From Clostridia bacterium (GTDB taxonomy: Bacteria > Bacillota > Clostridia > Oscillospirales > CAG-272), in the NCBI GenBank assembly GCA_017472285.1, contig JAFUQQ010000012.1, positions 2,051 through 66,050 of the forward strand: DNA of 64,000 nucleotides. Direction: 5' to 3'. This document shows positions 10,332 to 34,013 of this stretch, one piece after another. A program made the position numbers and the translations under genes. Each line of letters starts with the position of its first letter. Position 1 is the stretch's first letter. Under the pieces are notes generated by a model that was given only the letters and a program-made list of their open reading frames with translations, did no database searches and was not told the DNA's origin.

Positions 10332-10661
10332 ATGGAAATAAAGATCAATACAGAAATCAAAGATTACAATGAAACCATGTTTTTCGGTCTTTCGGTCAGA
10401 CAATTCATATTTGCACTTTTGGCTTGCGGTGCGGCGGTCGGTATCTATTTCGGATGCCGACCGTTTTTGCATACGGAGATTTTATCATGGCTTTGTATGC
10501 TTGGTGCGGCACCGTTCGCGGCACTTGGCTTTGTAAAATACAACGGCATGACCGCCGAGCAGATCGTGAAAGCATGGGTACGAAGTGAATTTATGATGCC
10601 GAGATATTTGGTTTTTCATGGGACGAATCGGTATTACAATAAGGAGGAAACAAGGAAATGA
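10332..10661 (+). CDS. PrgI-family T4SS membrane protein
   Basis: INTEIKDYNETMFFGLSVRQFIFALLACGAAVGIYF plus a second TM. ATGA overlap with the VirB4 start. Confidence 0.7.
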   Translation: MEIKINTEIKDYNETMFFGLSVRQFIFALLACGAAVGIYFGCRPFLHTEILSWLCMLGAAPFAALGFVKYNGMTAEQIVKAWVRSEFMMPRYLVFHGTNRYYNKEETRK

Positions 10662-15371: not shown

Positions 15372-15410
15372 ACAGTCCCTTTTCATTTAGATTGGAAAGG
15401 GACTGTTTTT
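15372..15410. terminator. bidirectional terminator between convergent genes
   Basis: ACAGTCCCTTT / AAAGGGACTGT 11-bp stem, flanked by A-run and T-run. Confidence 0.75.
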
Positions 15411-15729
15411 ATAAATCAGGCTTACTGATATGTTCCAAAAGATCCATAAGCATTTTTATGGTAATACTGTCAGTGTGGCGAACATATTTTAGGAGTTCGT
15501 TTTCAAGCACAGGATTTTCGACACCATCATCGAAAAAATCTTTAGGTGTGATTTCAAAGTATTCGCAAATATAAAGAAATTCTTTCATGGAAGGAAGCGA
15601 TTTGCCTGATGTAATACCTCTAATATAGCTATCACCATGTCCCAATTCGTGACTCAATTTATATTCGGAAATGTTTTTTTGAAGTCGAAGTTGAGTAATT
15701 CTTTTTCGAATATATTCATCGTATTGCAT
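15409..15729 (-). CDS. XRE-family HTH regulator
   Basis: IRKRITQLRLQKNISEYKLSHELGHGDSYIRGITSGKSLPSMKEFLYICEYFEITPKDFF. Confidence 0.75.
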   Translation of the reverse strand: MQYDEYIRKRITQLRLQKNISEYKLSHELGHGDSYIRGITSGKSLPSMKEFLYICEYFEITPKDFFDDGVENPVLENELLKYVRHTDSITIKMLMDLLEHISKPDL

Positions 15730-15882: not shown

Positions 15883-16269
15883 ATGAAATATAGATTTGAC
15901 TATTCAAATGAATTGCAAAAGGATATTCTCTTTTTTAATGATGCAAAAGTAGAACAGATTAAAGATAAAAGTGTTATTGATAAATTAAATCTTATTTCAA
16001 CTCTTATACAATCATTAACGAACCGATCAAATGCGCAACTGTTATATAATTGGAATTCAATTGCAAGGGTTAGGGGTGATATAATTGAGTATGAAAAAAA
16101 TGATTTATATTTGATTATTAGATACTATTTTAATGAATTTCAATCTTTTTTGAAAAACGATAGTTTATTATGTTCTGTAATAGATGATTCCGTATTGCTT
16201 TGTGATTATCTTAATATAAGAAATATTGAAAACTATATAGTGATAGAAATATTCTTGAAATTAGATTGA
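15883..16269 (+). CDS. hypothetical protein
   Basis: 128-aa ORF, AT-rich codon usage consistent with neighbours. The stop overlaps the next ORF. No motif recognised. Confidence 0.4.
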   Translation: MKYRFDYSNELQKDILFFNDAKVEQIKDKSVIDKLNLISTLIQSLTNRSNAQLLYNWNSIARVRGDIIEYEKNDLYLIIRYYFNEFQSFLKNDSLLCSVIDDSVLLCDYLNIRNIENYIVIEIFLKLD

Positions 16270-16346
16270 TTTTTTCTAAGGTCTATGTTATAGTGAAATT
16301 GTTTGAAGCAAGAGAAAATATTCGTTCAAATAAAAAGGGGGAGGCC

Positions 16347-16964
16347 ATGTTACCGATTATTCTCGCTATCAACAATGAGGATGATAGAAATTTTGTGGAA
16401 AAAATCTATGTTCAATATGGGAAAAAGATATACAAGGTGGCATTTAAGGTTTTAAATAATTCTGAAGATGCGGAGGATTGTTTGCATGATGTGATCAAGA
16501 TTATCATTGACCATTTAGATGTATTTCAATCTGCAGACGGGGAACGCTTTATTAAATTACTTGTCACTTGTACTCGTAACGCAGCACTCGATATTTATCG
16601 CAAAAATAAAATTAAACATATCAATGAGAGAAAACATAAACCATATACCAATGATGAAATGGATGCTGATAATGATAATAATCATGATGTTGATATTGAA
16701 AATGTTCCAGATGAGAATATGTTTTCCGATTTGATTTTGATTAATGAAGAAAGTCGCAAACGGATTTCGGAAATGATAGAGGAATTAGACCCTATTTATA
16801 GAGACGTCTTATATTTGCGCTATCAATATTCGATGAAAAATCAAGATATTGCTAAATTATTGAAAGTGTCGGAAAGTGTTGTAAAGGTTAGATATCATAG
16901 AGCTAAAAAGCTATTATTGCAGAAAAGGGGGAAGGAACTCAATGAAATGCGAAAGAATGGATAA
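16347..16964 (+). CDS. sigma-70 family (ECF-like) RNA polymerase sigma factor
   Basis: GGGGGAGG RBS then ATG 16347. Region 2-like EDAEDCLHDVIKIIIDH...TRNAALDIYRK, region 4 HTH YRDVLYLRYQYSMKNQDIAKLLKVSESVVKVRYHRAKKLL. Confidence 0.8.
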   Translation: MLPIILAINNEDDRNFVEKIYVQYGKKIYKVAFKVLNNSEDAEDCLHDVIKIIIDHLDVFQSADGERFIKLLVTCTRNAALDIYRKNKIKHINERKHKPYTNDEMDADNDNNHDVDIENVPDENMFSDLILINEESRKRISEMIEELDPIYRDVLYLRYQYSMKNQDIAKLLKVSESVVKVRYHRAKKLLLQKRGKELNEMRKNG

Positions 16965-17655
16965 GTATGACTATTTGATTGCACTGTCAACCTTGGATGC
17001 AAAAGATGATGATGTGAAGATGTTTATGGAACTTGATGATTCTGATGTGGTGCTTAGCGATCATATTACGGATAAAATCGAGAAGCTGATTCGTAGAGAA
17101 TCTGCATACAAAACTACCGGTTTTGTCCAATTTAAGCGAATTTTGTCAAAAGTTGCAATTATAACACTGGTTGTAATTTCTATCATGTTCACAGCAATGA
17201 TGAGTGTTTCTGCCATCAGATCTGCTATTTGGGAAATTATTACAGAATGGTATGAAGAATATATTGCAGTGGGCTATGTTCCCGAAGAGGGATTTGAAGT
17301 TGTTGAACCTCCTAGTATGATTGAAGAAATTCGCAAACCGACACTTTTGCCGCTTGGGGCGGAAGAAGAGGTAGGAATAAATTTAAAATCTGCGTTTACT
17401 TGTGATTATTATATAGGTGATCGTTGCTATGTTTCATTTAGCCAAAGCTTGCTTACAAGTGATGTTGGAATGTTAGATGGTGATGATGCTACGATGACGG
17501 AAATCATGGTAGGTGAGTATAAGGCATGGCTTTTTACTTATGAGAAGGAAGGATACATATATATATTATGGAATGATACGAAATATTCATACCAAATTTC
17601 TAGTACAGTTTTGAGTGTTAATGAATTAGCTCTAATTGCAGAAAGTATAAAATAA
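16942..17655 (+). CDS. anti-sigma factor-like membrane protein (DUF4367-like C-terminus)
   Basis: Overlaps the sigma gene end. Single TM (VAIITLVVISIMFTAMMSV). C-terminal ...YSYQISSTVLSVNELALIAESIK, typical of DUF4367 anti-sigma partners. Confidence 0.6.
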   Translation: MKCERMDKYDYLIALSTLDAKDDDVKMFMELDDSDVVLSDHITDKIEKLIRRESAYKTTGFVQFKRILSKVAIITLVVISIMFTAMMSVSAIRSAIWEIITEWYEEYIAVGYVPEEGFEVVEPPSMIEEIRKPTLLPLGAEEEVGINLKSAFTCDYYIGDRCYVSFSQSLLTSDVGMLDGDDATMTEIMVGEYKAWLFTYEKEGYIYILWNDTKYSYQISSTVLSVNELALIAESIK

Positions 17656-18395: not shown

Positions 18396-19541
18396 ATGAT
18401 GAAAATGATTGAGTTCTCCAATAAGACGAATATTTTGCTCAATGATATTGACGTTGATTTATTGTATTTAAATATTTACTTTGATGTTGGTTTCAAAGAT
18501 GATGTTGACTTTCAAATTGGAGCTGCTCATCTTGCTGAACATATCATTTCAAAAAGTGTAATTAAAAATTTGAATTTGATACAATCGCCATTTAGTTGGA
18601 ACAATGCTTATGTGAGTAAAGAATATACTTGTTTGTGGCATGTAATAAAAAAGGAAGATGAAAATCGCATTGTTTCGTACATTAAGGAATATCTTTCTCT
18701 TATTCAAAATGTAAATAAATACAATTTAATAAATATTGATGGAGAAAAAGAAAGGTTTTATGCTGAGAATGATGCTATTCTTGCAAACACTTTATTGATG
18801 AATTTGCTTTATATTGAATATCAGCTTTTTACAGACGGATATTCAATCCCAAGTTTTTTCTGTGACACAGAAGAAAACTATTTTACTAAATTAAAAGAAA
18901 ATTCGATTCATATGCTTTCAGATCGCTATAAAAATAGCCGTATTACAATAGTAATAACAGGAAAAATTTCCTCTGATATCTTGCAATCATTAACTAATAT
19001 GTGTGTAACGAGAAAGGTTGACGATTGCGAAATTATAAATAAGGTTTATGAAAATATAAAATTCCCACATTATAAAAAGTTGTGTTACATTGCATATAAA
19101 ATATGTATATATGAATTGGAGGGCTCTATTTATCAGCTCGATATATTGGCAAGGTTTTATCAAATTATTTCCAGCAATTATACATACAGAAAAGTTATTT
19201 GTAATTATCAAATTAAGGTTATAGATAATGAAATCCTATTTGCTGTGTTTTTTTATGATAAGAAAGGGATGGATGCTTTTTGCAGTATAGATTTTAACCA
19301 TGCCTTATTATCAAGTGTAGAACTGATTTTCTCAATAAAAAACGAATTAGCTTTCACCTTGGCTAAGAATCTCTCCGATCCTTTTAAGATGAATTTTCAG
19401 ATATATAAGGCTTATCGCGATATGCATAAGCTTCTCAATAAAATGGAGGTTTTACAAACCGTTTATAATATTACTGAAAATGATTTGCAATGCGTTCACA
19501 ATTTAGTAAGAAAAAATGAGGCTCTTAGATATTCTGAGTGA
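18396..19541 (+). CDS. M16 (pitrilysin/insulinase)-family peptidase, candidate leader peptidase
   Basis: Inverted zinc motif HxxEH present as GAAHLAEHIISK near the N-terminus. First gene of the colinear cluster. Confidence 0.65.
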   Translation: MMKMIEFSNKTNILLNDIDVDLLYLNIYFDVGFKDDVDFQIGAAHLAEHIISKSVIKNLNLIQSPFSWNNAYVSKEYTCLWHVIKKEDENRIVSYIKEYLSLIQNVNKYNLINIDGEKERFYAENDAILANTLLMNLLYIEYQLFTDGYSIPSFFCDTEENYFTKLKENSIHMLSDRYKNSRITIVITGKISSDILQSLTNMCVTRKVDDCEIINKVYENIKFPHYKKLCYIAYKICIYELEGSIYQLDILARFYQIISSNYTYRKVICNYQIKVIDNEILFAVFFYDKKGMDAFCSIDFNHALLSSVELIFSIKNELAFTLAKNLSDPFKMNFQIYKAYRDMHKLLNKMEVLQTVYNITENDLQCVHNLVRKNEALRYSE

Positions 19542-19561: not shown

Positions 19562-20965
19562 TTGGATAATAGAATTTTTCGTTTGAATCCGGAGTGTAAA
19601 CTTGTCATTTCCAATAATAAAGGTGTTTTATTGTTATGTAAACCTTATTGTAATAATCCAGAAAACAATTCGGAACATTATAGAATATCGTATATTACAG
19701 CACTAATCATTAATAATTTGGATGGTCGGCACACAGTAAATGAAGTTGCTCAAATATTAGGTCATTTATTTAATCAAAAAGACAAGGTCGATTATTTAGA
19801 ATCACGAGTATGTGCAGTAATTTGCATGTTTGAAAAAGCATTTGACGCTTTATCAACAAAGGATATTCTAGTAAAACGTATATATTCGGATGAATATATT
19901 ATTAAAACGATTGCTTATTATGACAAAAGCGAATTTAAGTTACAGAGACTTTCGTTCCCCAGACAAATAGTGATGAGAATCACTAATTTGTGTGACAAAA
20001 AATGCATATATTGCTATCAGTGTTCATATAAAAATGAATCTGATCTTGAATATTTGACAATGGATCGAATGTCTGATATATTGAAAGAAGCGGCTGGAAA
20101 CGGGACTGAAAATTTGATTGTTACTGGTGGTGAACCATTTGTAAGAAAAGACATTTACAAGATCATAGAAATGGCATCGAATCAAAAGCTAAAGGTTTTT
20201 GTATCCACAAAACGGGCATTGAGCCAAGAGCAGTTGCAATTGCTTTTTTTCAGCGGTATATCTGAGTTGCAGTTCAGTGTTGACACAAACAATACACAAA
20301 TATTGCAAAAATTGACAGGCGGTAATACTGATTTTAGTGAATATCTCTCCTCTATCAAAATGGCTTTGAAATTAAATATTAATGTTATTGTTAAAGCGGT
20401 CATAACGTCTTTGAATATCAAGACTATTCCGCTGTATGTAGAGGAACTACAACAAATTGGCGTGAAACATATTAAATTGAATTATTATGAGTTAAACTGT
20501 AAGAGCAATGATTTTGGCTTGTTGCCAGACATATCGTCAATGAAATGGTTGGATGATAATATGAAAATAATATGTAAAAGGGCGCAAGCAAAAATCGAGT
20601 ATGATTATGATATGGCTAAAATGATACTCGATAAGAAGTATCGCGATTTACATAGAAAAAGATGTTTGGCATTCAAGGATACGATATATATTAGAGAAGA
20701 CGGAAAGGTTTCTTTCTGCGAAATGCTGATGGACTATCCTGAATTTATCGTTGGTGATTTGCGTACTCACACTATCCTTGATATTTGGAATTCTAACGAG
20801 ATAGATTCATATATTGTTCCAGATAAAACAAAATTCGAGAATACAGTTTGTTATACTTGCCATGATTTTTATACTTGCTTTGAAAAAAGGTGCTTTATGA
20901 GGACATATGCACAATATCATAAAAAATTTATGCCTGATCCATGGTGCAATAAATATGAGAATTGA
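19562..20965 (+). CDS. radical SAM/SPASM peptide maturase 1
   Basis: TTG start after GGGGGG RBS. CxxxCxxC = CDKKCIYC. C-terminal auxiliary-cluster cysteines (CLAF..FCEM...CYTCHDFYTCFEKRC). The N-terminal ~100 aa could be a PqqD-like RRE (inference). Confidence 0.8.
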   Translation: MDNRIFRLNPECKLVISNNKGVLLLCKPYCNNPENNSEHYRISYITALIINNLDGRHTVNEVAQILGHLFNQKDKVDYLESRVCAVICMFEKAFDALSTKDILVKRIYSDEYIIKTIAYYDKSEFKLQRLSFPRQIVMRITNLCDKKCIYCYQCSYKNESDLEYLTMDRMSDILKEAAGNGTENLIVTGGEPFVRKDIYKIIEMASNQKLKVFVSTKRALSQEQLQLLFFSGISELQFSVDTNNTQILQKLTGGNTDFSEYLSSIKMALKLNINVIVKAVITSLNIKTIPLYVEELQQIGVKHIKLNYYELNCKSNDFGLLPDISSMKWLDDNMKIICKRAQAKIEYDYDMAKMILDKKYRDLHRKRCLAFKDTIYIREDGKVSFCEMLMDYPEFIVGDLRTHTILDIWNSNEIDSYIVPDKTKFENTVCYTCHDFYTCFEKRCFMRTYAQYHKKFMPDPWCNKYEN

Positions 20966-20982: not shown

Positions 20983-22017
20983 ATGAATATCGATGATTAT
21001 GTTATAATCGCACCACAGAAGAAGCATCCCGATGTTGTGTTTTTTAATACAAGACAAGGCTCAATTCAAATTAATACTAACATTGATCATGTTGAAAGAT
21101 TCATAACCGATGATAATTATATTAGTGATACAGCCAAAGGAAATATTATAGGTTCTGTGAGCATAATTTGCAAACCTGGGTTGTTCAAAAATGAAGTTAA
21201 TCAATATGCTGATGGTCAATTTATAAAAAAGGAGGATTTGATCTATAGTGTTGGTGTAGAAAACACTATTTTTTGCAATGAAGAATCAAATTTGCTAATC
21301 AATCATTACCCAGTTTGCAATTTGCTTTATTTTAATACTAATCATAACTATGCGCTATGTGTTATACCGAGTGAGGATGTTGCTGGGTTTCTAGCAAAAA
21401 TGGCTATCAAAAGACTATCTGCGAATTATAATTACAGAACCAAGGCATATTTTTCATTACATGCATCTTGTGTAACTTATTTGGATATGGCTTTTGTTTT
21501 TATTGCTGGCGGCAGAGCAGGTAAAACGACATCCTATTTAAACTTAGTAAGCGATAGATATTTTCCAATGAATGATGATGTTTTGTTTTGGAAATGTGAA
21601 CAAGATGATATTACTATTGACAGCATCCCACTAAAAGTAAACATAAGAGAAAATAGTCTTCGTTATTTGAGATTTCCACTTGATTTAACTATATGCAATA
21701 AAGGTTTTGATAATGAATTATATGTAAGCACGGATAAACTCTTTAATAAAACAATCAGCTCTCCAAGCAAATTAAAAGCAATATTTATTCCTGAGATTAA
21801 TCATAAAATTACAACAATAAAGAGAATAAATTCTAAGGATTATTTAAAGCGCATTTTAAGATCTTGTATGACGCATGACCAATTAACGCTAGACGAAAAT
21901 TTTGTAGAATCATTTAACCGATTGATGAAATATTCAATTTACAAAATTGAAATTTCAGACGATGCAGAAGAATTCTTGACATGTTTCAACGCTTTTGTTA
22001 ATACTGTTAGCATTTGA
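20983..22017 (+). CDS. HPr-kinase-like P-loop protein
   Basis: LHASCVTYLDMAFVFIAGGRAGKTTSYLNLVSDRYFPMNDDVLFW matches the HprK C-terminal core pattern (H..v....gvl..G.sG.GKS....L...G....DD). Confidence 0.55.
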   Translation: MNIDDYVIIAPQKKHPDVVFFNTRQGSIQINTNIDHVERFITDDNYISDTAKGNIIGSVSIICKPGLFKNEVNQYADGQFIKKEDLIYSVGVENTIFCNEESNLLINHYPVCNLLYFNTNHNYALCVIPSEDVAGFLAKMAIKRLSANYNYRTKAYFSLHASCVTYLDMAFVFIAGGRAGKTTSYLNLVSDRYFPMNDDVLFWKCEQDDITIDSIPLKVNIRENSLRYLRFPLDLTICNKGFDNELYVSTDKLFNKTISSPSKLKAIFIPEINHKITTIKRINSKDYLKRILRSCMTHDQLTLDENFVESFNRLMKYSIYKIEISDDAEEFLTCFNAFVNTVSI

Positions 22018-22042: not shown

Positions 22043-22189
22043 ATGTCAAATTGCATATTATATGAGTTAACAAAACTTATTGAGGAATGGGAGTATTCAA
22101 TTGATGATTTGGACAATATTAAAATTTTGGAATTATGCACAGGGGGAGCATATTCCCTGGCGTGTCAGAATGGCTGTCAACAGAGGTGA
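22043..22189 (+). CDS. RiPP precursor peptide paralog a (48 aa, 3 Cys, shortened core)
   Basis: GAAGGAG RBS, ATG 22043. MSNCILYELTKLIEEWEYSIDDLDNIKILELCTGGAYSLACQNGCQQR. The leader is homologous to b and c. Confidence 0.7.
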   Translation: MSNCILYELTKLIEEWEYSIDDLDNIKILELCTGGAYSLACQNGCQQR

Positions 22190-22323
22190 TCTTGCTACCC
22201 AACATGAATATCGAGCGAATAAGATGAAGGCGTGGACGATGGAAAAAATCATCCGAATATAAAATATTTGACAGATTATGCAGGAATGTTATGAATATAA
22301 AAACATTGTAAGGGGGTGCAATA

Positions 22324-22482
22324 ATGGATCTTAAACTGGATGAGCTTCGCGAATTGATTGATGAATTGGGATATTCTTTGAACGATCTCGATAATATTGA
22401 AATATTAGCAGCGTGTACAGGAGTTGCTTGTCAACAAAGCTGCCAGCCGGCTTGCCAGCCTGGATGCAGTAATAAACCTTAA
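22324..22482 (+). CDS. RiPP precursor peptide paralog b (52 aa, 5 Cys); not in ORF track
   Basis: AAGGGGG RBS, ATG 22324, TAA 22480-22482. MDLKLDELRELIDELGYSLNDLDNIEILAACTGVACQQSCQPACQPGCSNKP. Confidence 0.8.
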   Translation: MDLKLDELRELIDELGYSLNDLDNIEILAACTGVACQQSCQPACQPGCSNKP

Positions 22483-22853
22483 TGATGATTTGTTTGTAAA
22501 AAGCAAACTCTTTACTGCAACAGTTTACAAACAAGATTCCGATACTGATCATTTTGAATTTTTCTTTCAGAAAATGTGATGCGTAATGTTTAAATATATC
22601 ATGTTTCGATTCATTTTGGTTAGCGGCTCGAATGCGCATATCTGCTGGTAACTCAGCAGATATGCGGAAAAACTGCTTAATCGAATCTGTATTATAAGGC
22701 GATGTATGGTGCTTTTCATTGGCGAACTTGAGGTTCTAATATAAATCTGTCAAGCTGTTATCACTTTATTGTAACAGAAATATGCATAGCTACAAATACT
22801 GTCGTGGCGTCGGCTGCAGCTATGGTTATTTTACACCAAAGGAGTATAATATC

Positions 22854-23015
22854 ATGGAGTATAATTTGGACGAATTAAAAAGCATTATTGAGGAATTGGG
22901 ATATTCACTTGATGATTTGGCGAATATTGAAATATTGGCATCCTGCACAGGAGTTTCATGTTCCTCTGCGTGTCAAAACGGCTGTCAACAAGGGTGCTCT
23001 GCTACAAGCAAGTAA
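22854..23015 (+). CDS. RiPP precursor peptide paralog c (53 aa, 5 Cys)
   Basis: AAAGGAG RBS, ATG 22854. MEYNLDELKSIIEELGYSLDDLANIEILASCTGVSCSSACQNGCQQGCSATSK. Confidence 0.8.
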   Translation: MEYNLDELKSIIEELGYSLDDLANIEILASCTGVSCSSACQNGCQQGCSATSK

Positions 23016-23061
23016 TTAATCATTGTCGGATTATTCCCTATTTTACTTAAACATGGAACAA

Positions 23062-23204
23062 GTCGTACAAGCAATGTCATTAAGTTAAGAAAAAAGGTAT
23101 TCGCCCGAGATCCTTCGGCATAGGCTCCCACTGTCATTCTTGAGTGCCTACGCCTCGAGGGTGACACGGGCGTCATGCTTATCTTAATGACATTGGTCGT
23201 ACAA
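23062..23204. mobile_element. MITE-like insertion (13-bp terminal inverted repeats, 9-bp direct-repeat flanks)
   Basis: CAATGTCATTAAG (23072-23084) and its exact reverse complement CTTAATGACATTG (23183-23195) enclose a GC-richer hairpin-rich core. GTCGTACAA occurs at 23062-23070 and 23196-23204. Confidence 0.55.
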
Positions 23205-23239
23205 TTATTCGTATTATCTCAACGTAGGAGTGGAACATA

Positions 23240-25042
23240 ATGAGGACCGTTAAAAATATAATGAAGACTATCAAGAATATAGTGAAGATGTTCGACCAAG
23301 CGGTGATGCTTGATAAAGGGTTTATATTTGTTTTCATTCTTTATACTGTACTATCATCGCTGGCAAATATCATTTTACTTTATATCCCCAAATTTTCAGC
23401 TGAGCTTGTCGGAGCAAATTTCAAAAATGTTAACCTATTATATCTTACCGCTCTCGCCATTGTTTTGACTGCCATCTTTGAGTTCGGTTCCGAGTGGATG
23501 TTTGATATATTCAATAGCAGAATATTTCCCATTCGTTTTGGCTTTATCGGGAAGCTGAGTGAAAAGTTTTCTTCATTGGATTATTGCAAAATCATGCAGG
23601 AAGAGTATGTTACGAAAGGTTCTTTTGCTTTTAATGCCATGAAATCCAATGATGTGGGTGTTCAATGTGTCTTACGTGAAATCTTTGTCATATTTTCGTC
23701 CCTCCTATCCATTATTTTGGCGACTGGAATTCTTTCAAACCTTCATATTAGTATTGTTCTTTTATGTGTTATTTTTGCCGTGGTATCATTTGTTCTGCAA
23801 AAAGAAAGAGATAAGCTCTATTTCAAATTTGCTAAAGATAGAGTGAAACTTGACAATAGAGTATCAAATTCATTGAATTTATTATACGATATCCGATATG
23901 GTAAAGAGCTTAGGATGTACGATACCAATAAGCTGATTCTGAATCAGTATTCTTCTTTAATGAAAGAACAACGAAAAAGAAATAACAGGAATAATCTGAA
24001 GTTCCAGATCTTCAACATATGCGGTGTCATATTGGATAAAGGCAAGAATATCTGTATTTATTTTGTGCTGATCTACTTGTATTTTCAAAGTAATATGTCT
24101 CTTGGTGATTTTATTTTATTTATCGGCGCCAGTACAGAATTGTCTTTGTGGCTGAAGAACTTTATTATTCATTTTTCCGCGATTGCAAACAACGGGAGAT
24201 ACATCAATGAATATTATGACTTTTTGAGTATCAGCGATGAATCCTCAAAAACAGAGGAGCTTCATGTTGATCATGTGAAGGATATGACGATAGAATTCAG
24301 AGATGTAAGCTTCCGTTATCCGGAAAGTAATAAATATGTGTTGCAGAATGTTTCTTTGACCATTCACAATGGAGATACGGTTGCTTTAGCTGGATTAAAC
24401 GGTGCGGGAAAGACCACTTTTATATATTTGCTCATGAGACTGTATGAACCGACGGAAGGCGCAATTTTTCTCAACGGAGTCAACATAAATCGGTATTATA
24501 AAAAAGAGTATTGGACGCTGATTAATCCGCTGTTTCAGGATTTCAATATTTTCGCCTTTGACATACGACAGAATGTTTCGCTGAAGACGAAAAAACTTAC
24601 GGATGACCAAAAGGTGGAAAAAGCCTTGGGAAAAATCAATCTTCTTGAAAAAATCAAACAATTGCCGACCAGTACGAAAACGATGTTGACGAAAGAAATT
24701 GACTCGGATGGTTTGCAATTTTCTGGAGGAGAGAGTCAGCGATTGGCGTTTGCCCGTACACTGTACAGGGATAATTCTCTGCTACTAATATTAGACGAGC
24801 CCTCCGCGTCGCTTGATCCCTTGGCAGAAGCGGATCTTTATAAAGAATTCAAAGAATTGAGCCGTGGAAAAACATCTTTGTTTATTTCACATAGGTTTGC
24901 CAGCGTTTCCTTTTGTGACTATGTTATCTTTTTGAATGATGGAAAAGTATCGGAGATCGGCACACACAAAGAATTGATAGAGAAAAATGGTACTTATGCG
25001 GAATTGTACAAAATACAATCTGACTTTTTCCATTCTAAATAA
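23240..25042 (+). CDS. ABC exporter, fused permease/ATPase (half-transporter 1)
   Basis: N-terminal TM domain. Walker A GLNGAGKTT, signature FSGGESQRL, Walker B LLILDEPSASLD. Confidence 0.9.
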   Translation: MRTVKNIMKTIKNIVKMFDQAVMLDKGFIFVFILYTVLSSLANIILLYIPKFSAELVGANFKNVNLLYLTALAIVLTAIFEFGSEWMFDIFNSRIFPIRFGFIGKLSEKFSSLDYCKIMQEEYVTKGSFAFNAMKSNDVGVQCVLREIFVIFSSLLSIILATGILSNLHISIVLLCVIFAVVSFVLQKERDKLYFKFAKDRVKLDNRVSNSLNLLYDIRYGKELRMYDTNKLILNQYSSLMKEQRKRNNRNNLKFQIFNICGVILDKGKNICIYFVLIYLYFQSNMSLGDFILFIGASTELSLWLKNFIIHFSAIANNGRYINEYYDFLSISDESSKTEELHVDHVKDMTIEFRDVSFRYPESNKYVLQNVSLTIHNGDTVALAGLNGAGKTTFIYLLMRLYEPTEGAIFLNGVNINRYYKKEYWTLINPLFQDFNIFAFDIRQNVSLKTKKLTDDQKVEKALGKINLLEKIKQLPTSTKTMLTKEIDSDGLQFSGGESQRLAFARTLYRDNSLLLILDEPSASLDPLAEADLYKEFKELSRGKTSLFISHRFASVSFCDYVIFLNDGKVSEIGTHKELIEKNGTYAELYKIQSDFFHSK

Positions 25043-25054: not shown

Positions 25055-26821
25055 ATGTTTAATAGGAGAAAAATACTGCAATATTCAATGAAATATGTTT
25101 TGGAAAACAAAACAGCGCCGTTCTGGTTTATTCTTTATACGTTATTAAGTATAACGATTCCGCTGATGGCAATTTATTATCCCAAGATTATTCTGGATTT
25201 TATCGAAAAGGAAAATCAGTGGGCCGCGATGATGAGTGTTGTGTGCTTTATTTCGCTGGAAGCCGTATTATATATAGCAAATTCCTTGATACAGACCAAG
25301 ATTCAGGATATTCAAACTATTGTCAACGCACAGATTAATGAGGATATAGCGGATGTAAATATCTCTGTCCCTTATATGATTAGTGAGAGCAGCGAGTTTA
25401 TTGAGAATAAGAACAAGGCTATAGCGGGACTTAACATTCAAAGCGGAACTATCGGCATATATCTGACACTGTGTAATATTGTGGCTGCAATCATCCGGGT
25501 CATTCTTTCCAGCGTTGCTCTGTCTATGCTCAATCCATGGTTTTCTATCGTCATTTTAATTACGGTTTTGATTAACGCTTTTGTTTATAGTTATATCAAT
25601 AAGCTTGAGGAAAAATTTTGGAACTCTCTTATATGTTTTAACCGAATGTTTTCTTATATTTTTATGAAGTTATCCTGTGGTTTCAGATTTGCAAAAGAAA
25701 ATCGTCTTTATGCGATGTCAGATATTATAGACGAAAAAAACAACGAGTATATTCAGTATACAAAAAATAAGTTTCAGCAAAAGTATAAGGAGGCTCTGCC
25801 GTATAAGATTTTACACCAGGCAATTGGACAATCCCAGATGCTGCTTATCTACGGTTGCTTATTATATTCGGCTTATGTAAAGGGAATAAGCGTCGCTGAT
25901 TTTACAGTTATGCTCAGCATTGCGCTGTCCCTGAAGGGATGGCTGAATACCATAATTTATGGGGTTGTCGATATCAATATCTCGTGTGACTATTTACAGT
26001 ATTTTTATAACTTGAGTAAGTATAAAGTAAACAACTCCTCAAAGTCTTCGGAAAATAAGCTTGATCCTGACTCGCGGAATATCATAGAATTTAAAAATGT
26101 CTGCTTTAGATATGAGAACGCGGAATCATATGCATTATCTGATGTATCCGTCAAAATTTCGTCAAATGAAAATCTTGCAATCATCGGCACGAATGGTTCA
26201 GGGAAAACCACATTTATAAAGCTCTTGCTGGGATTTTATCGGCCGACAAGCGGAACGATAACGGTAAATGGGAAAGATATCAGCGAGTACGAAGCAGAGG
26301 AGTATCTGAAACTGTTCAGTGCGGTCTTTCAGGATTATAGTATCTATCCAATGTCGATAAAGGATAATATTGTTTTCGGCGAACCTTTTGACGAGGATAA
26401 AGTGAACAGAATTTTGACGGAACTTGCGCTGATGCCCTCTATCAATAATATGCCAGATGGTATCGAGAGCGTGTTGAATGATAACAGCCAGCCGAATGTA
26501 TTGAAATTGTCCGGCGGACAAGAGCAAAAACTTGCCATCGCGCGTGCTCTGTATAAAAAAGCTCCTATAGTCATTATGGATGAACCGACAGCGTCTTTGG
26601 ATTCGTTATCGGAGTATAAGATATATCAAAACGCGTTTCAAATAGCAAAAGAACGACATATGATCTTCACTTCGCACCGTGTATCCTGCTGTAAAAATGC
26701 GGATAGAGTGCTTGTCTTTGATAACGGTTTTTTGGTTCAGGATGGTGTACATCGGGATTTGATAGAGATACCAGGTGTTTACAGGCAGCTTTACTCTACA
26801 CAGGAACATTATTATACATAA
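25055..26821 (+). CDS. ABC exporter, fused permease/ATPase (half-transporter 2)
   Basis: N-terminal TM domain. Walker A GTNGSGKTT, signature LSGGQEQKL, Walker B VIMDEPTASLD. Confidence 0.9.
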   Translation: MFNRRKILQYSMKYVLENKTAPFWFILYTLLSITIPLMAIYYPKIILDFIEKENQWAAMMSVVCFISLEAVLYIANSLIQTKIQDIQTIVNAQINEDIADVNISVPYMISESSEFIENKNKAIAGLNIQSGTIGIYLTLCNIVAAIIRVILSSVALSMLNPWFSIVILITVLINAFVYSYINKLEEKFWNSLICFNRMFSYIFMKLSCGFRFAKENRLYAMSDIIDEKNNEYIQYTKNKFQQKYKEALPYKILHQAIGQSQMLLIYGCLLYSAYVKGISVADFTVMLSIALSLKGWLNTIIYGVVDINISCDYLQYFYNLSKYKVNNSSKSSENKLDPDSRNIIEFKNVCFRYENAESYALSDVSVKISSNENLAIIGTNGSGKTTFIKLLLGFYRPTSGTITVNGKDISEYEAEEYLKLFSAVFQDYSIYPMSIKDNIVFGEPFDEDKVNRILTELALMPSINNMPDGIESVLNDNSQPNVLKLSGGQEQKLAIARALYKKAPIVIMDEPTASLDSLSEYKIYQNAFQIAKERHMIFTSHRVSCCKNADRVLVFDNGFLVQDGVHRDLIEIPGVYRQLYSTQEHYYT

Positions 26822-27008: not shown

Positions 27009-28442
27009 GTGAACAATTTGAAAAGATATGTTTTGCGATCATTTATTAAAATAGATAAAATCGAAAATAAGATGTATTTGGTTTCTAGAATAATGCCAAA
27101 CATTAAGTATGCCTATTTAGATCCATTGGTCGCTCTTGTCGTTTATAAACTTAACACTGGTAATAGCGTCGAGGAAGTTGCAAGTGAGGTGGCTGACTTC
27201 CTACAATGTGAATACACGATTGCTGAAGAAAAAGTGAACAATATTGTATTTATTCTTAGAGATTATTTGATAGAAACAAACAGCACGAAGAATATACGCA
27301 GATCAATCGATTTAAAGAATATACTGGTGGAAGGAAGCCGAGATTTTGAACCTATTGTCCCGCGAAGTTCTGTTCCTAAAAAAATTAGTTTTAATTTAAC
27401 AGAATATTGTCCAAGACAATGCATTTACTGCTTTAATGGCGCAAAACTTTCTGCCAATAATGCCATTCCAAACACTTTTCTGTCACCTGCACGGTTTAAA
27501 GAAGTTATAGACGAGGTTTTGGCACTTGGTATACCTTTTATTGAAATTGGGGGCGGAGATCCATTAATTAATCCTGATATATTGCAGTATATTCAGATAT
27601 TATCTGCTGTTGACGATTCAAAAAAGGGGATTTCTACTAAATCATATGTTAGCCCAGAGTTTGCTATTCAGCTTCGTGAACATGGATTAAATGAAATTCA
27701 AGTTAGTATAGACAGTCTTAATCCCCAAACAGCAGATATGCTGATGGGTGTAAAAAATTCTTACAGGGAAGTAACCGAAACTATAAACAACCTGAGAAAA
27801 GCAGGAATTAATGTAACAATAAAAGCAGTAATTACTTCGTTTAACATTTACGATATACCATCTCTATTTGAGAATTTCATTGATTCGGGAATCAAAAAAA
27901 TTCTATTTAATTATTATAACTTCTCATCTAATCGTCACTCTAAAAAACTTTTCCCCACAAATAGTCAGCTAACATGGTTAAGCGCAAATATGGAAAAATT
28001 GCTCAAAAAGGCTGAGCAAGAACAGGTATATACTGATTATAGAGATATAACTTACGAGGATATTCGATCTACTGATTGTTCCATGATGCTGAAAAGCTAT
28101 ACTAGAAATCAATGTGGTGGTATGAAAGGTGAATTTACTGTTCGCTATGATGGAAAAGTCATCTTTTGTCCAACAATTTGTTATTGTGATGACTTTGTCG
28201 TTGGAGATCTTAAGATTGATGGAATATATGATATTTGGACTTCGTCATTGTTAGATGAATGGGATCGACCGGAAAGCAAACGGGAAAAATACCATGGCAC
28301 GGAGTGCTATGATTGTAAACTGTATGATAAGTGTCATTTCAGAAGATGTTATATTCGGCAATACGATGCCAATAATCGATTTTTTTCAAAAGATCCATTG
28401 TGTCCTTATGGTGATCCTAATTATTCACAATTCATAGAATAA
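27009..28442 (+). CDS. radical SAM/SPASM peptide maturase 2
   Basis: GTG start after AAGAGAAGG. CPRQCIYC. C-terminal Cys cluster (QCGGM..FCPTICYC...CYDCKLYDKCHFRRC). Overall architecture parallels 19562-20965. Confidence 0.8.
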   Translation: MNNLKRYVLRSFIKIDKIENKMYLVSRIMPNIKYAYLDPLVALVVYKLNTGNSVEEVASEVADFLQCEYTIAEEKVNNIVFILRDYLIETNSTKNIRRSIDLKNILVEGSRDFEPIVPRSSVPKKISFNLTEYCPRQCIYCFNGAKLSANNAIPNTFLSPARFKEVIDEVLALGIPFIEIGGGDPLINPDILQYIQILSAVDDSKKGISTKSYVSPEFAIQLREHGLNEIQVSIDSLNPQTADMLMGVKNSYREVTETINNLRKAGINVTIKAVITSFNIYDIPSLFENFIDSGIKKILFNYYNFSSNRHSKKLFPTNSQLTWLSANMEKLLKKAEQEQVYTDYRDITYEDIRSTDCSMMLKSYTRNQCGGMKGEFTVRYDGKVIFCPTICYCDDFVVGDLKIDGIYDIWTSSLLDEWDRPESKREKYHGTECYDCKLYDKCHFRRCYIRQYDANNRFFSKDPLCPYGDPNYSQFIE

Positions 28443-28775
28443 TATCGCGAATCAATAATTGATGTCTTTGCATATGTTCGCCACGCACGTCAACAATGGT
28501 GTAATATCCAGTTATGTATGGACATAAATAGTGGGCAGAACGAATAAAAAATCATAGTAGTTTTAAAACCGCAGGGAGTGGTATCATAACTGTGACTATG
28601 CCTCGCGCTACTGATGAGTAGGAATAATTATGGCGTTACTGTGCTCAATCACACTTTAGTGTGGATTACCCGAACACATAAACAAAGCAGTTTTCTCAAT
28701 GTGCGCAATATACATTGTCCTAATAAAGTTATTTTATGTCTATTTATTCTGATATGTGCCGCAAAGGAGTTTTTT

Positions 28776-29042
28776 ATGAAAGAAATAATAAAGAAAAGAG
28801 TATTAGAAATCGTCAATTCTAATCTGGAATATGAAAAAATCACAATGGAACAATGCGAAGATGATTTGCTTGAATATGGAATGGATTCCATTCGTTTTAT
28901 TCAGACGATTGTTTCCCTTGAAGAAGAATTTGAGTGTGAAGTACCGGATTCAAAATTGCTTTTAGTTGAAATGAATACTATAAATAAAATATATGAAGTG
29001 CTGATTTCTATTGATTCAAATGAATCTAATATTGTTTATTAA
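28776..29042 (+). CDS. acyl carrier protein
   Basis: AAAGGAG RBS then ATG 28776. 88 aa with the phosphopantetheine-site motif LEYGMDSIRFIQ. The track ORF 28614 is a 5' over-extension. Confidence 0.75.
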   Translation: MKEIIKKRVLEIVNSNLEYEKITMEQCEDDLLEYGMDSIRFIQTIVSLEEEFECEVPDSKLLLVEMNTINKIYEVLISIDSNESNIVY

Positions 29043-29624: not shown

Positions 29625-29879
29625 AGGTGGTTGTTTCATTGTTGAATAAATAACTACGACAAAAGTATTGAAATTACCAAAAAATAGCTTATAAAGAATA
29701 TAATGTTTATAGAATAGTTTAGATTATTTTTATTTATACTAAGGTATTTGGCGTTTTACCATAAAAAATATGTCTTATGTTTTATAAGATTTATTTATGA
29801 TTGAAAATCGCATCCCTATGACATTGTTCAAATTGGAACATAAGTGAATTTTAAATATATTAAAACAAGGGAGATCATA

Positions 29880-31421
29880 ATGGAAAAATTAAAAATCACT
29901 TGGATTTCAAATATACAATTCGAGCCATATTTGCGGTCATGTATTGTTGATGTTTTTGCTCCTTTAAGTTTAACTCCATATACGACATATATTTCATTTA
30001 ATGAGTATTCAGAAAAAATTATGGAAATATCTGATAGTGATTATATTGTTGTCTGCTTAAATCTTGATGAAATATATCCTAATCTTATTAATAATTTGAT
30101 TTCTAATGCAGTATCTGAGGATGCAATTATATCGGATATTGTGGCAAAATGTCAATCGTTTTATAACGCGATAAGATGTTATACATTAACACCAATAATA
30201 TGGATTGGTTTTGAAGACTATTGTTATCATATTGATTATATTGATGGTCAAATACCAATATTAGAATTCCTGACGGACAGATTAAACATAAATGTTTTTC
30301 AAATGTTTAATGGGCAAGATGTCTATATTGATCTTAAACATTTAATTGCAAGGAATGGGATTAATAGATCCTATAATTTAAAAGGGAAATTTCGTTGGAA
30401 TTCTCCATATTCAAAAGAACTAATTTTGTTAATGGTGCAAGAGTTATATAAGCAGTATTTGATATATATAGGTCGAACAAAAAAATGCATTGTGATTGAT
30501 TGCGATAATGTTCTCTGGGGAGGAATTCTTTTAGAAGATGGTATCGAAGGAATTCAACTTGGAAGTTACGGATTAGGACGGCAATATCAAGATTTCCAAA
30601 GATTTTTGCTGACTATGTATTATCAAGGAGTTATACTAGCAGTATGTAGCAAAAACGATGAGCCCGATGTTCTTAAAGTTTTTCGAGAGCATAGTGAAAT
30701 GATTTTAAAGAAAGAATACATTTCTTGCTTTCAATGTAATTGGGATAATAAGCCTGATAATATTCAAAAAATTGCGTATACATTGAATATTGGGATAGAC
30801 AGTATGATTTTTGTTGATGATTCAAAATCTGAAATAGAAGCAGTTAAATCAATGCTACCGAATATTGAAGCTTTTCAATATGACTGTAATACCATATATG
30901 AACAGTTCTCATGTTTTAATCTGAACTCAAAAAGTGATTTGACAAATATCAAAAAAAGAACTGAGACTTATAGAACCAACATTCAACGAGAAAAACTGAA
31001 ATCAGACTTTATATCATCTGATGAATATTTGATGTTGCTTCATACAAAAATTGATATTCACAAGTCACTTTCCATAGAAATGTCACGTATATCAGAACTG
31101 ACACAACGAACCAATAAATTTACAAATGGAATTCGATATACAGTTAATCAGTTAAAAGAGAAAATAAATCGTTTTGGATATGTGTTATATACAGTATCAG
31201 TATCAGACAGATTTTCAGATTTGGGTGTTGTAGGTGTGATAGGTATATATGAAAATAAGTTGGATCTGTTTTCACTTTCATGTAGAGCAATGGGGAGACA
31301 CGTTGAAGATGTTATGATTAATCATATCAAACAATGTAATATAAAAACATGCACATTTGTTTCGACTGGGAAAAATGACATGTTGTATGAAAAATTTAAA
31401 AATTATTTCAATTTTAACTAG
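29880..31421 (+). CDS. FkbH-like HAD-IIIC phosphatase/acyl-ACP-forming enzyme with C-terminal GNAT-like domain
   Basis: AAGGGAG RBS then ATG 29880. CIVIDCDNVLWGGILLEDGIEGIQLG...AVCSKNDEPDV...NWDNKPDNIQKIAYTLNIGIDSMIFVDDSKSEIEAV. C-terminus DRFSDLGVVGVI...LSCRAMGRHVED. Confidence 0.8.
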   Translation: MEKLKITWISNIQFEPYLRSCIVDVFAPLSLTPYTTYISFNEYSEKIMEISDSDYIVVCLNLDEIYPNLINNLISNAVSEDAIISDIVAKCQSFYNAIRCYTLTPIIWIGFEDYCYHIDYIDGQIPILEFLTDRLNINVFQMFNGQDVYIDLKHLIARNGINRSYNLKGKFRWNSPYSKELILLMVQELYKQYLIYIGRTKKCIVIDCDNVLWGGILLEDGIEGIQLGSYGLGRQYQDFQRFLLTMYYQGVILAVCSKNDEPDVLKVFREHSEMILKKEYISCFQCNWDNKPDNIQKIAYTLNIGIDSMIFVDDSKSEIEAVKSMLPNIEAFQYDCNTIYEQFSCFNLNSKSDLTNIKKRTETYRTNIQREKLKSDFISSDEYLMLLHTKIDIHKSLSIEMSRISELTQRTNKFTNGIRYTVNQLKEKINRFGYVLYTVSVSDRFSDLGVVGVIGIYENKLDLFSLSCRAMGRHVEDVMINHIKQCNIKTCTFVSTGKNDMLYEKFKNYFNFN

Positions 31422-31583: not shown

Positions 31584-31654
31584 ATCAAAGAAAAGCTATA
31601 GTTGTGAAACTAATAATTCAGCTAATATTAAAATTATATGCAAAATTAATTTTG

Positions 31655-32614
31655 ATGGAAAAGATGGGGGTGAAATGTTTGAAATATAATATTGAAAATA
31701 ACAATTTACACAAAAAACAAAAAGCGAATGTTATTAGAAATTTAATGATGTATCACTATTGTGATCCAGTATTTGAAAAATTACAAAATATCCCATATGC
31801 GGTTATTAAAGGCGAAGTGTTATCAATAATAGCGTATGGCGAAGTGGGCTTTCGCGCTTGTGGAGATTTGGATATTTTAATTCCTCGCTCATATGCCGAG
31901 ATAGTAAAAAAAATTTTAATAGAAAACGGTTTTGAGAAAGATTTACATGATGGGGAAAAACAACGTGATGTGACACGAAAAGAGAAAATTATGTTTATGA
32001 ATTCTCATCAGACAGAACCGTATGTAAAAATTATTGATGGAAAAAGACTTGTTCACATTGATATAAATGTCGACATTTTTTGGGGAGAATATAGGGGTAA
32101 GAGAATTGATTTGAATTCTTTTTTGTCGGATACACATGTAATGGAAATTTATAAAAAACATGTAAAAATACTTTCAAATATTAAACATTTTATCGTTTTA
32201 TGTTTGCATCATTATAAAGAAATGAATGCTATATACCATTTTGCTATTAAAAATGCATTTAATGAAAAAATGTTTGAAGATATATATAAATTATATTTAA
32301 AACTTACTGTTGATGATTTGGAGAAGCTGGATGAATTTGTTTTTACATATCAATTAGAAGAAATATTTTATTATATGTTGTATTATACGAGTCTTGTATT
32401 TAGCGATTCAAATTTGAAATTACAAGCTAGTCATTATGAAACAAAGGAAGGAATAGATCATCTCGATTATTATGGATTAACAAATAAAGAACGAAAAAGG
32501 TGGTCTATCCCCTTTGTTGAGAGAATGAACCATCCGAATATATTTGAGATTATTAAAAAAGATTTATCCATAGATGATATAAACAAAATGAATTTAGCTT
32601 TGAGCATATTTTGA
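31655..32614 (+). CDS. NTP_transf_5-like nucleotidyltransferase-fold protein
   Basis: AVIKGEVLSIIAYGEVGFRACGDLDILIPRSYAEIVKKILIENGF is the typical GDxD(I/L)L pattern of the uncharacterised nucleotidyltransferase family seen in RiPP loci. Start is ambiguous (GTG 31604, ATG 31655 or 31664). Confidence 0.6.
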   Translation: MEKMGVKCLKYNIENNNLHKKQKANVIRNLMMYHYCDPVFEKLQNIPYAVIKGEVLSIIAYGEVGFRACGDLDILIPRSYAEIVKKILIENGFEKDLHDGEKQRDVTRKEKIMFMNSHQTEPYVKIIDGKRLVHIDINVDIFWGEYRGKRIDLNSFLSDTHVMEIYKKHVKILSNIKHFIVLCLHHYKEMNAIYHFAIKNAFNEKMFEDIYKLYLKLTVDDLEKLDEFVFTYQLEEIFYYMLYYTSLVFSDSNLKLQASHYETKEGIDHLDYYGLTNKERKRWSIPFVERMNHPNIFEIIKKDLSIDDINKMNLALSIF

Positions 32615-32975: not shown

Positions 32976-34013
32976 ATGAAAAGAGTATTATCTGTTATAG
33001 ATCCTATTATTACACACACACCTCCTATTGCAAATCTTTTTTCTATACTTGGAACAAATCCAAATACAGAAAGTTGGATTATGAATAATTTTGTTAATAT
33101 ATATATCCATGAAAATGAAATCTTTGATAATTTTTATGATCGCAACACTTTTTTCTATGGTTGTCCTTGGATACAGGTGGTTCAAATACGGCGAGAAATT
33201 GTTTTGCGAATTTGTGACCGTATCATAGACTATGTAAAAGCACTTATTGATGAGGGATTCTATGTTTATGTTGCTGGAAATACAGAATGTATTCCTGCAT
33301 ATCCCAACGATTCTTACGGGGCTCATAATTTCATGGTATATGGATATGATGACGAAAATAAAGAATTTTATTTTTCGGATTTTTTTTTGAATAGTAAATA
33401 TGCACGTGGAAAATGTTCTTATTCTGAGCTCGAGGAAGCATTGAAGACATCAAATATGAATCGGTATTTTGTTAATCTAATATATGGGTTGAAACTTAAA
33501 GACATTGAATATAAATTTGAAATTGACTTACTCTCTGAGAAGTTGACTGATTATTTAAACTCAACAAATTTATTCTGCAAATTTAAGACTAGAAAAGATG
33601 AAGAGTTTTATAGTAATAAGGGCGGAAATACTTATAACTATTTCAGTTATGCTGAAATGAAATCCTTATATTTTTTTGGCTTATCATATTATGATAAACT
33701 TACAGAGATGGTCCAAAAAAAATCAAAAAAACTAAAAAGGCCGCTTGATTTATTGTATGAACATAAGTTTTTAATGAGTAGACGCATAAATTTTCTTTAT
33801 CAAAATAAATATATCATTGAATCTGAGTACGAAGGCTTAATAACGATGTGTAAAGATATTTCAAAACTATCTTTAATTAATAGAAATGGATATATAAAAT
33901 ATCAAATGAAACCTTCTGATTTGCTGTTAAGACGCATTAATGAAAGAATTATAGAGACAAAAGAAAAGGATTGTCTTTTTACTGAAAGGCTATTGAAAGC
34001 ACTTGATAGATAG
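32976..34013 (+). CDS. hypothetical protein (weak papain-fold/C39-BtrH-like hint)
   Basis: AAGGAG RBS. 345 aa. The only hint is GAHNFMVYGYDDENKEFYFSDF (His-then-Asp pattern as in C39-like/BtrH-like folds) with upstream FYGCPW. Unverified. Confidence 0.5.
   Translation: MKRVLSVIDPIITHTPPIANLFSILGTNPNTESWIMNNFVNIYIHENEIFDNFYDRNTFFYGCPWIQVVQIRREIVLRICDRIIDYVKALIDEGFYVYVAGNTECIPAYPNDSYGAHNFMVYGYDDENKEFYFSDFFLNSKYARGKCSYSELEEALKTSNMNRYFVNLIYGLKLKDIEYKFEIDLLSEKLTDYLNSTNLFCKFKTRKDEEFYSNKGGNTYNYFSYAEMKSLYFFGLSYYDKLTEMVQKKSKKLKRPLDLLYEHKFLMSRRINFLYQNKYIIESEYEGLITMCKDISKLSLINRNGYIKYQMKPSDLLLRRINERIIETKEKDCLFTERLLKALDR

Follow-up and report, generated by a model that had tools for sequence, protein, structure and literature searches.

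The described peptides closest to those considered here belong to the RiPPs, peptides that are ribosomally synthesised and then post-translationally modified. Among them are the sactipeptides, such as subtilosin A (with the enzyme AlbA), thuricin CD and SkfA-SkfB; the subtilosin A cluster encodes the M16 peptidases AlbE and AlbF, and thuricin CD has a CX3C ladder. They also include the ranthipeptides, such as CteA-CteB (thermocellin), Tte1186a, freyrasin (PapA-PapB), NxxcA and the SCIFF (six-Cys-in-forty-five) peptides, the last of which are widespread in Clostridia (PMC8326336). SPASM enzymes, which use radical S-adenosylmethionine (SAM), catalyse many kinds of cross-link (PMC8326336). In another branch, the lasso peptides paeninodin and pseudomycoidin, an HprK homolog phosphorylates the C-terminal Ser of the RiPP precursor, and a protein of the NTP-transferase family is then needed for the addition of a hexose onto the phosphate (PMC8498205, PMC6993621). 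Here we analyse a 64,000-nucleotide stretch from the assembly of an uncultured Clostridia bacterium (contig JAFUQQ010000012.1; hereafter the window), in which three small paralogous open reading frames (ORFs), a, b and c, lie among genes for two radical SAM/SPASM enzymes. We consider it likely that b and c are functional precursor genes, with a as a decaying copy, and that they represent an undescribed family of thioether-type RiPPs, modified by radical SAM enzymes and accompanied by tailoring genes that form an unusual set. The ORFs are as follows.

22043 to 22189, plus strand: precursor paralog a, 48 aa, MSNCILYELTKLIEEWEYSIDDLDNIKILELCTGGAYSLACQNGCQQR followed by the stop; intact leader, degenerate core.
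22324 to 22482, plus strand: precursor b, 52 aa, with leader MDLKLDELRELIDELGYSLNDLDNIEILAA and core CTGVACQQSCQPACQPGCSNKP.
22331 to 22639, minus strand: spurious ORF antisense to b, 102 aa; unconserved in the related contig L004, and gene callers prefer b.
22854 to 23015, plus strand: precursor c, 53 aa, with core CTGVSCSSACQNGCQQGCSATSK.

The coordinates and sequences of a, b and c match exactly those given in a preliminary description of the window, which had proposed that the three are paralogous and RiPP-related. Their paralogy is borne out by pairwise BLASTP, with E-values from 1e-25 to 4e-15 (b and c, 65% identity, E = 1e-25; a and c, 64%, E = 5e-18; a and b, 56%, E = 4e-15), and the DNA similarity among them is confined to the stretch from start codon to stop codon. 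As had been noted, each ORF has its own Shine-Dalgarno sequence upstream of its start codon (AAGGAG for a and for c, AAGGGGG for b). That of c lies 9 nt upstream of the ATG at 22854, and a 77-aa ORF that begins at 22782 is an upstream extension of c that is unconserved. The three peptides have a leader in common, and the CX4-CX3-CX3-CX3-C ladder proposed for b and c is exact in both, which contain five Cys each, in 52 and 53 aa. Copy a retains three core Cys of the five ladder positions and has one additional Cys in its leader. The C-termini of b and c are ...SNKP and ...SATSK.

Precursor b had been described as invisible to a list of ORFs. It is indeed overlapped by the 102-aa antisense ORF, but ordinary gene callers do find it: b was called on all of the metagenome contigs, its exact protein occurs on 5 of them, and GenBank lists it as MBQ8496239.1, 'hypothetical protein [Clostridia bacterium]'. 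(The window is identical across 20 kb to three metagenome contigs.) That the antisense ORF is spurious, as previously proposed, follows from two observations. In the orthologous locus on contig L004 it is only 43 aa long, and thus not conserved. Also, by coordinates, the most variable positions of b, its third codon positions (23 of the 36 differences between b and its L004 counterpart), are the second codon positions of the antisense ORF.

We next asked what comparison with related loci says about the coding status of these ORFs. Only two close relatives of the upstream radical SAM/SPASM enzyme (enzyme 1) were found among 5.8 billion proteins, with 72% and 59% identity. The contigs that carry them, L004 and L005, have the same small ORFs in the same place: three in L004 (a', b' and c') and one in L005. 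Further precursor homologs are present in L010 and in L009, the latter being a sister cluster from another assembly that is 98.9% identical to the window cluster. Substitution is strongly biased towards synonymous sites. By the Nei-Gojobori method, the proportions of synonymous (pS) and nonsynonymous (pN) differences between the window and L004 are pS 0.68 and pN 0.12 for b/b', and pS 0.83 and pN 0.15 for c/c'. The differences at codon positions 1, 2 and 3 number 11, 2 and 23 for b/b' and 11, 6 and 29 for c/c'. In L009, c is identical and b has one conservative change. The preliminary description had named absence of conservation, or of a synonymous bias, as what would speak against its proposal; instead the ORFs are kept in related clusters and their substitutions are synonymous-biased, which favours their coding status. 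The small ORFs are real genes under purifying selection.

These data also bear on the suggestion that a, b and c are chance ORFs over conserved non-coding repeats, or else unmodified secreted Cys-rich peptides unrelated to the neighbouring enzymes. Such a suggestion fits with the small size of the ORFs and with the lack of any Pfam or NCBIfam model for the peptides. However, the synonymous bias refutes its non-coding version, and protein conservation persists where synonymous sites are saturated. The version with unmodified peptides has to account for strict co-occurrence with the same enzyme set in at least eight independent loci, and for a conserved leader joined to a variable core. We regard the suggestion as very improbable in either form.

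The conserved leader and variable core are seen most clearly in the wider family. A word-index protein search with c retrieved only c itself; the family surfaced through the neighbours of the enzymes and through an exhaustive search, in which a profile of b and c was compared with 1.84 billion representative proteins (E <= 1e-3). This search gave 15 matches, 12 of them peptides of 44-87 aa. All 12 peptides share the leader consensus L-x-E-L-x-x-L-I-x-E-L-G-Y-x-[IL]-x-D-L-x-[DN]-[IMV]-E-[IV]-L-x-x-C-[TS]-G, and the leader, comprising the first ~30 residues, is conserved and acidic. The cores are Cys-rich and diverse, as in CTGTCSTCNGTCQKCNAGASNGNSR, CSGTCTKCQNSCENCKTGCVRNS, CTGVSCKFVKCFIVG and CTGTCVLIKCAFG. 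Pairwise identity among 19 members averages 0.46 for the leader and 0.19 for the core; without the shared Cys, the core value falls to 0.12. Judged by sequence, a conserved leader followed by a hypervariable core is the classical signature of a RiPP. The number of core Cys ranges from 2 to 7 across the family, and some cores are only 13 aa long. The core starts with a nearly invariant C-[TS]-G, which is CRG in one member, and the Thr or Ser after the first Cys is the only hydroxyl residue conserved almost family-wide. A C-terminal Ser is found in three relatives (P0015, P0020 and the second peptide of locus L013).

The family is rare. When a degenerate DNA pattern for the leader was searched against 185,579 species genomes, it found three true loci, all in Clostridia/Bacillota metagenome-assembled genomes (MAGs), and one chance match. 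Annotation places one member, WP_418561576.1, in Monoglobus pectinilyticus, and this peptide occurs on many (hundreds of) gut metagenome contigs. Three tandem precursors are found in each of two distant clusters, at 6432-6930 of L016, a rabbit-gut MAG, and at 7549-7996 of the metagenome contig L008; their hydrophobic cores are short and contain three Cys (such as CTGTCVTLRCGVN). Since both loci carry three tandem precursors, multi-copy precursor arrays recur in the family. A search of the literature on the combinations of features in the cluster (Monoglobus, HprK, FkbH, acyl carrier protein, SPASM, radical SAM RiPP) found no paper. The peptides thus form a rare, undescribed precursor family whose leader is conserved and whose core varies.

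Within the window, the preliminary description had treated a, b and c as three equivalent precursors, and this part of it does not hold. Copy a is truncated and depleted in Cys. Relative to c, its second Cys is replaced by Tyr, the codon of its fifth Cys is changed from TGC to TGA, and an indel follows the TGA. In the 98.9%-identical sister cluster L009, a 1-nt insertion at the codon of the Cys that begins the CTG motif frameshifts the whole core. The window and L009 differ at 6 positions in the core and 3′ stretch of a and at 0 positions in its leader, where the clusters differ by 1.1% overall. One gene caller took the +2 frame at a. In L004, the first paralog, a', is full-length (61 aa) but divergent, with its first Cys replaced by Tyr and an acidic tail. 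Because a is degenerate in the window and in L009, and a' is divergent in L004, the first position of the array is the fast-evolving one. Copy a is probably a decaying paralog, and b and c are probably the functional precursor genes.

A different interpretation would be that all three genes are functional, with a yielding a shorter product with three Cys, or serving, through its leader only, to decoy or regulate the maturation machinery. Copy a does keep its ATG, its Shine-Dalgarno sequence and an intact leader with no differences from L009, its pN relative to c (0.21) is below its pS (0.50), the first paralog of L004 is full-length despite its divergence, and other family members have only 2-3 Cys. 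Yet the premature TGA stands precisely where a Cys codon is conserved, an indel comes after it, the L009 frameshift takes out the entire core, conserved residues of the leader are changed (ELGYS to EWEYS), and the divergence of a is raised in its core and 3′ part. We therefore think it improbable, without dismissing it, that a is functional, and retain the reading in which b and c are the precursors and a is decaying.

The preliminary description had pointed to RiPP-precursor-type genes on the basis of the peptides, and this assignment agrees with the genes alongside them. It gave none of the cluster context, namely the M16-like peptidase, the HprK-like protein, the NTP_transf_5 and FkbH proteins, the acyl carrier protein (ACP), the second radical SAM enzyme and the integrative and conjugative element (ICE) that carries the cluster. 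The genes around the precursors are listed below.

16266 to 17655, plus strand: ECF-type sigma factor and DUF4367 protein, upstream of the cluster.
18396 to 19541, plus strand: M16-like zinc peptidase and candidate leader peptidase, 381 aa, with HLAEH (HxxEH) at residue 45.
19562 to 20965, plus strand: radical SAM/SPASM enzyme 1, 467 aa, with Pfam Radical_SAM and SPASM domains.
20983 to 22017, plus strand: P-loop protein, putatively HprK-like, 344 aa, with GGRAGKTT (Walker A) and NDD.
23240 to 25042, plus strand: ATP-binding cassette (ABC) exporter half-transporter 1, 600 aa.
25055 to 26821, plus strand: ABC exporter half-transporter 2, 588 aa.
27009 to 28442, plus strand: radical SAM/SPASM enzyme 2, 477 aa, the type kept in single-enzyme clusters.
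28614 to 29042, plus strand: ACP (PP-binding, E = 2e-10).
29844 to 31421, plus strand: FkbH-domain protein (HAD-IIIC; TIGR01686, 232.6 bits, cutoff 146.65).
31604 to 32614, plus strand: NTP_transf_5 protein, an uncharacterised nucleotidyltransferase (PF14907, E = 1.7e-27).
32976 to 34013, plus strand: 345-aa protein of uncertain cluster membership; its matches to Peptidase_C39_2 and BtrH_N are weak and sub-threshold.

Both radical SAM enzymes have a CX3CX2C motif (at residue 144 in enzyme 1) and a C-terminal set of Cys matched by the Pfam SPASM domain. They are 30% identical along their whole length, and both have N-terminal extensions of 125-130 aa (~130 aa in enzyme 1). In a poor AlphaFold2 model (pLDDT 51), the extension of enzyme 1 has the order beta-beta-alpha-alpha-alpha. 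The M16-like protein weakly matches MPP-beta in PDB (E = 0.0014), and its orthologs have weak or faint Pfam M16 matches.

Using tblastn of the window proteins against all related loci, we found that the neighbourhood is shared by the independent loci L004, L005, L008, L011/L012, L013/L014, L016, L017 and L018. A radical SAM enzyme of the enzyme 2 type and the HprK-like protein occur in every related locus that covers their position, and M16-like homologs in most of those that cover theirs. ABC exporter genes, usually two, are likewise detected in most of the loci, with one called in L008 and with the L016 sequence ending at this point. The enzyme 1 type is an extra paralog present only in some clusters; the single-enzyme clusters (L011, L012, L017 and L018) keep a protein like enzyme 2 (34-42% identity), not one like enzyme 1. 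The ACP and NTP_transf_5 are present in most of the longer loci, the ACP in L004, L008, L011 and L012, and NTP_transf_5 in these four and L013. FkbH is found again in L004 and L008, and L011 has a short, partial match of 117 aa to it. That these three genes turn up in distant clusters hints at a RiPP decoration that depends on a carrier protein. A DOT1-like methyltransferase is encoded as well in L011 and L012, which are clusters of the Monoglobus type. The 345-aa protein has no homolog in the other related loci by tblastn.

The cluster can now be compared with the named families. The peptides had been called SCIFF-like, and the compositional part of this likeness stands: as in SCIFFs and other ranthipeptides, a small Cys-rich core with CQxxC-type repeats is encoded in Clostridia beside a radical SAM/SPASM enzyme, and Cys-derived thioethers are the likely modification (PMC8326336). 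This might suggest that a, b and c are true SCIFF-family precursors, that is, extra paralogs of the six-Cys-in-forty-five peptide with a SCIFF-type maturase. The core does resemble the CQxxCQxxC stretch of SCIFF, and Pfam SCIFF (PF13165) matches b locally (residues 35-49, E = 0.027). This match scores 14.8 bits, however, where the gathering score is 27. Pfam SCIFF does not match c, and NCBIfam SCIFF matches none of the three peptides at E <= 0.1. SCIFF is defined by six Cys in ~45 residues, where b and c have five in 52 and 53, and the leader, as the preliminary description recognised, is different from that of SCIFF and unrelated to it. The relatives of the enzymes also point elsewhere. The best NCBIfam matches of both are PqqE, TIGR04053, MoaA, StsB, AhbC/AhbD, GeoRSP and SkfB, with those from PqqE to GeoRSP all far below cutoff, and the SCIFF maturase is absent among the matches listed (the best 25 of 63 and the best 25 of 54). 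In PDB, the radical SAM enzymes match MoaA, SkfB, PqqE, BlsE and SuiB; among the matches at E <= 1, none of the chains bears the label of a SCIFF or ranthipeptide maturase. Finally, the type of locus differs: SCIFF is a single conserved gene that is widespread in Clostridia (PMC8326336), whereas the present family is very rare and its locus ICE-borne and multi-copy. Unlike the ranthipeptide systems, the locus has two paralogous enzymes, along with M16, HprK-like, NTP_transf_5, FkbH and ACP accessories. Membership in the SCIFF family is thus hardly credible.

The sactipeptides share other features with the cluster, including a radical SAM/SPASM enzyme that is extended at its N-terminus (both SkfB and StsB rank with the better matches of the enzymes), an M16-type peptidase with ABC exporters, and a regularly spaced Cys ladder. 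Here, however, the ladder fills the whole C-terminal core and leaves no obvious downstream half with acceptor residues, the leader belongs to another family, some cores are very short (13 aa), and there are extra tailoring genes. Two further models for Cys-rich peptides, FibroRumin (TIGR04135) and Syntroph_Cxxx (TIGR04117), score far below their cutoffs, with 17.5 bits for b (cutoff 45) and 16.1 bits for c (cutoff 50). We also considered a double-glycine class II bacteriocin, and rejected it: there is no GG site, and Pfam reports no peptidase domain in either ABC protein. What the locus does have are the general hallmarks of radical SAM/SPASM Cys-rich RiPPs, with a CX3CX2C and SPASM enzyme beside the precursor in all related loci and a conserved leader with a hypervariable core. 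As far as sequence comparison goes, the cluster resembles a sactipeptide or ranthipeptide system with lasso-style phospho-tailoring genes, and it falls in none of the curated families tested.

The lasso-style element is the 344-aa P-loop protein. Its GGRAGKTT and NDD motifs are invariant among its homologs. A poor AlphaFold2 model of the protein (pLDDT 50.6) was compared with PDB using Foldseek, and the top 19 matches are all HPr kinase/phosphorylase (best E = 2e-4, TM ~0.5). The model and the motifs suggest that the protein is HprK-like. (When genome contigs were searched with a pattern from the alignment of this protein, none of 151 pattern matches was confirmed as a locus.) In the clusters of paeninodin (PadeK) and pseudomycoidin (PsmK and PsmN), a P-loop protein related to HprK, whose metal site has a DD motif, would be the counterpart of the putatively HprK-like protein here, and PsmN corresponds, by its description, to the co-encoded uncharacterised nucleotidyltransferase, which is here the PF14907 protein at 31604-32614. 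The systems differ in that the scaffold enzymes of the window cluster are radical SAM/SPASM enzymes rather than a lasso cyclase and B protease, in that FkbH and ACP are additional, and in that no similarity to HprK is detectable at the sequence level. If the HprK-like protein phosphorylates the peptide, its best candidate target would be the Thr or Ser of C-[TS]-G, since this is the only hydroxyl residue conserved nearly family-wide.

Taken together, these features suggest the following pathway. The leader most likely docks on the N-terminal extensions (~125-130 aa) of the two radical SAM/SPASM enzymes, and the thiols of the core Cys are most likely the donors for thioether cross-links that these enzymes would install to carbons of the backbone or of side chains, as in sactipeptides (S to C-alpha) and ranthipeptides (S to C-beta or C-gamma). 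The M16-like zinc peptidase, with its HLAEH motif, would cut off the leader near EIL-xx|CTG, and secretion of the product, and possibly immunity, would fall to the heterodimeric ABC exporter. By analogy to PsmK and PsmN, a Ser or Thr of the peptide probably receives a phosphate-based decoration from the HprK-like and NTP_transf_5 proteins, and FkbH and the ACP may contribute to this. The peptide is probably a bacteriocin.

Several observations weigh against this pathway and against the overall reading of the locus. The M16-like protein is a single half of ~380 aa, and no partner was identified. The N-terminal extensions of the enzymes have no significant match to PqqD or a RiPP recognition element (RRE), with only a faint 13.8-bit PqqD match in the L013 ortholog. 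The 344-aa protein has no sequence match in Pfam, NCBIfam or PDB, by single sequence or by profile, so that its likeness to HprK comes from a low-confidence model and from motifs. Precursors b and c lack a C-terminal Ser, unlike the lasso substrates of HprK homologs. Copy a, with its start codon, Shine-Dalgarno sequence and leader in place, may still be translated. Lastly, thioether formation is itself deduced, by analogy, from the Cys-rich core and the SPASM enzymes.

The last of these points raises the question of whether the precursors are genuine yet depend on a key chemistry other than radical thioether formation. In one such scheme, the HprK-like kinase would phosphorylate the Thr of C-T-G, and elimination and Cys addition would yield lanthionine-like rings. 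In another, the radical SAM enzymes would form C-C or C-O links or carry out epimerisation, and the Cys would serve in disulfides or metal binding. Such schemes would explain why the Thr or Ser after the first Cys is so widely conserved and why a kinase-like protein is universally present, and they agree with the diversity of SPASM cross-links (PMC8326336). On the other hand, no lyase or cyclase homolog is seen, one family member has CRG in place of CTG, and the main conserved feature of the core is the number and spacing of its Cys, as in sactipeptides and ranthipeptides. We consider chemistry of this kind unlikely, though it deserves some weight, and prefer thioether formation.

A more far-reaching proposal builds on the thioether reading. 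The peptides may tentatively be seen as defining a new class of RiPPs: one or two SPASM enzymes would cross-link the Cys-rich core, which would then be decorated through a conserved module of HprK-like, NTP_transf_5, FkbH and ACP proteins, for example with a phospho-linked glycosyl or glyceryl group on the Thr of C-T-G or on a C-terminal Ser. If true, this would combine radical chemistry with phosphate and carrier-protein chemistry in a way that is undescribed for sactipeptides and ranthipeptides.

The cluster is a low-GC island, with 27-32% GC over ~14-35 kb, inside a conjugative element of 44% GC. The RiPP cluster is cargo on this ICE-like element, which was traced over positions 1-40740 of the window. 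Its other genes include the following.

2799 to 3761: Toprim protein.
4091 to 5545: MobA/VirD2 relaxase.
6703 to 8361: T4 coupling protein.
10658 to 12976: VirB4/TraG-like ATPase.
36770 to 37207: MazF.
37506 to 38165: PBECR4 nuclease.
39115 to 40740: large serine recombinase.

Upstream of the cluster, in addition to the ECF-type sigma factor and the DUF4367 protein, there is a divergently transcribed HTH regulator at 15409-15729. None of these three was found in the other related loci, and they may be cluster-specific regulators. A sigma-70-like match at 21976-22005 (TTGACA, an 18-nt spacer and AATACT; 10 of 12 positions) lies just upstream of a, within the 3′ end of the HprK-like gene. A promoter specific to the precursors is conceivable, but such matches occur at chance level in the region.

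The spacers among the precursor and exporter genes can form stems, and one is prominent.

23053 to 23215, plus strand: long stable stem between c and the first ABC gene, with inverted-repeat arms of 25 nt.

The region 23016-23240 has a minimum free energy of -66.9 kcal/mol (z = -4.1), and L004 and L005 do not share the stem. It may act in processing or attenuation and so set how much precursor is made relative to exporter. The spacer of 370 nt between b and c contains two hairpins, an 11-bp AT-rich stem (22490-22534) and a perfect 13-bp stem (22635-22666), neither of which is followed by a T-run. A search with Rfam over 14-36 kb gave no match, and the intergenic stems thus belong to no known RNA family.

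For RiPP research, the family offers a new type of precursor and a new recognition sequence, with a leader that has neither a Pfam or NCBIfam model nor a paper that we could find. It also amounts to a natural library in which related enzymes handle very different Cys-rich cores, with 2 to 7 Cys, in the company of an unusual conserved tailoring set. Because a relative is encoded in a named human-gut species, Monoglobus pectinilyticus, and is seen on hundreds of metagenome contigs, the chemistry is directly testable. Its carriage on a conjugative element suggests that the window copy confers a competitive trait that can be transferred, probably a bacteriocin, in what is probably, going by sample labels, the ruminant gut.

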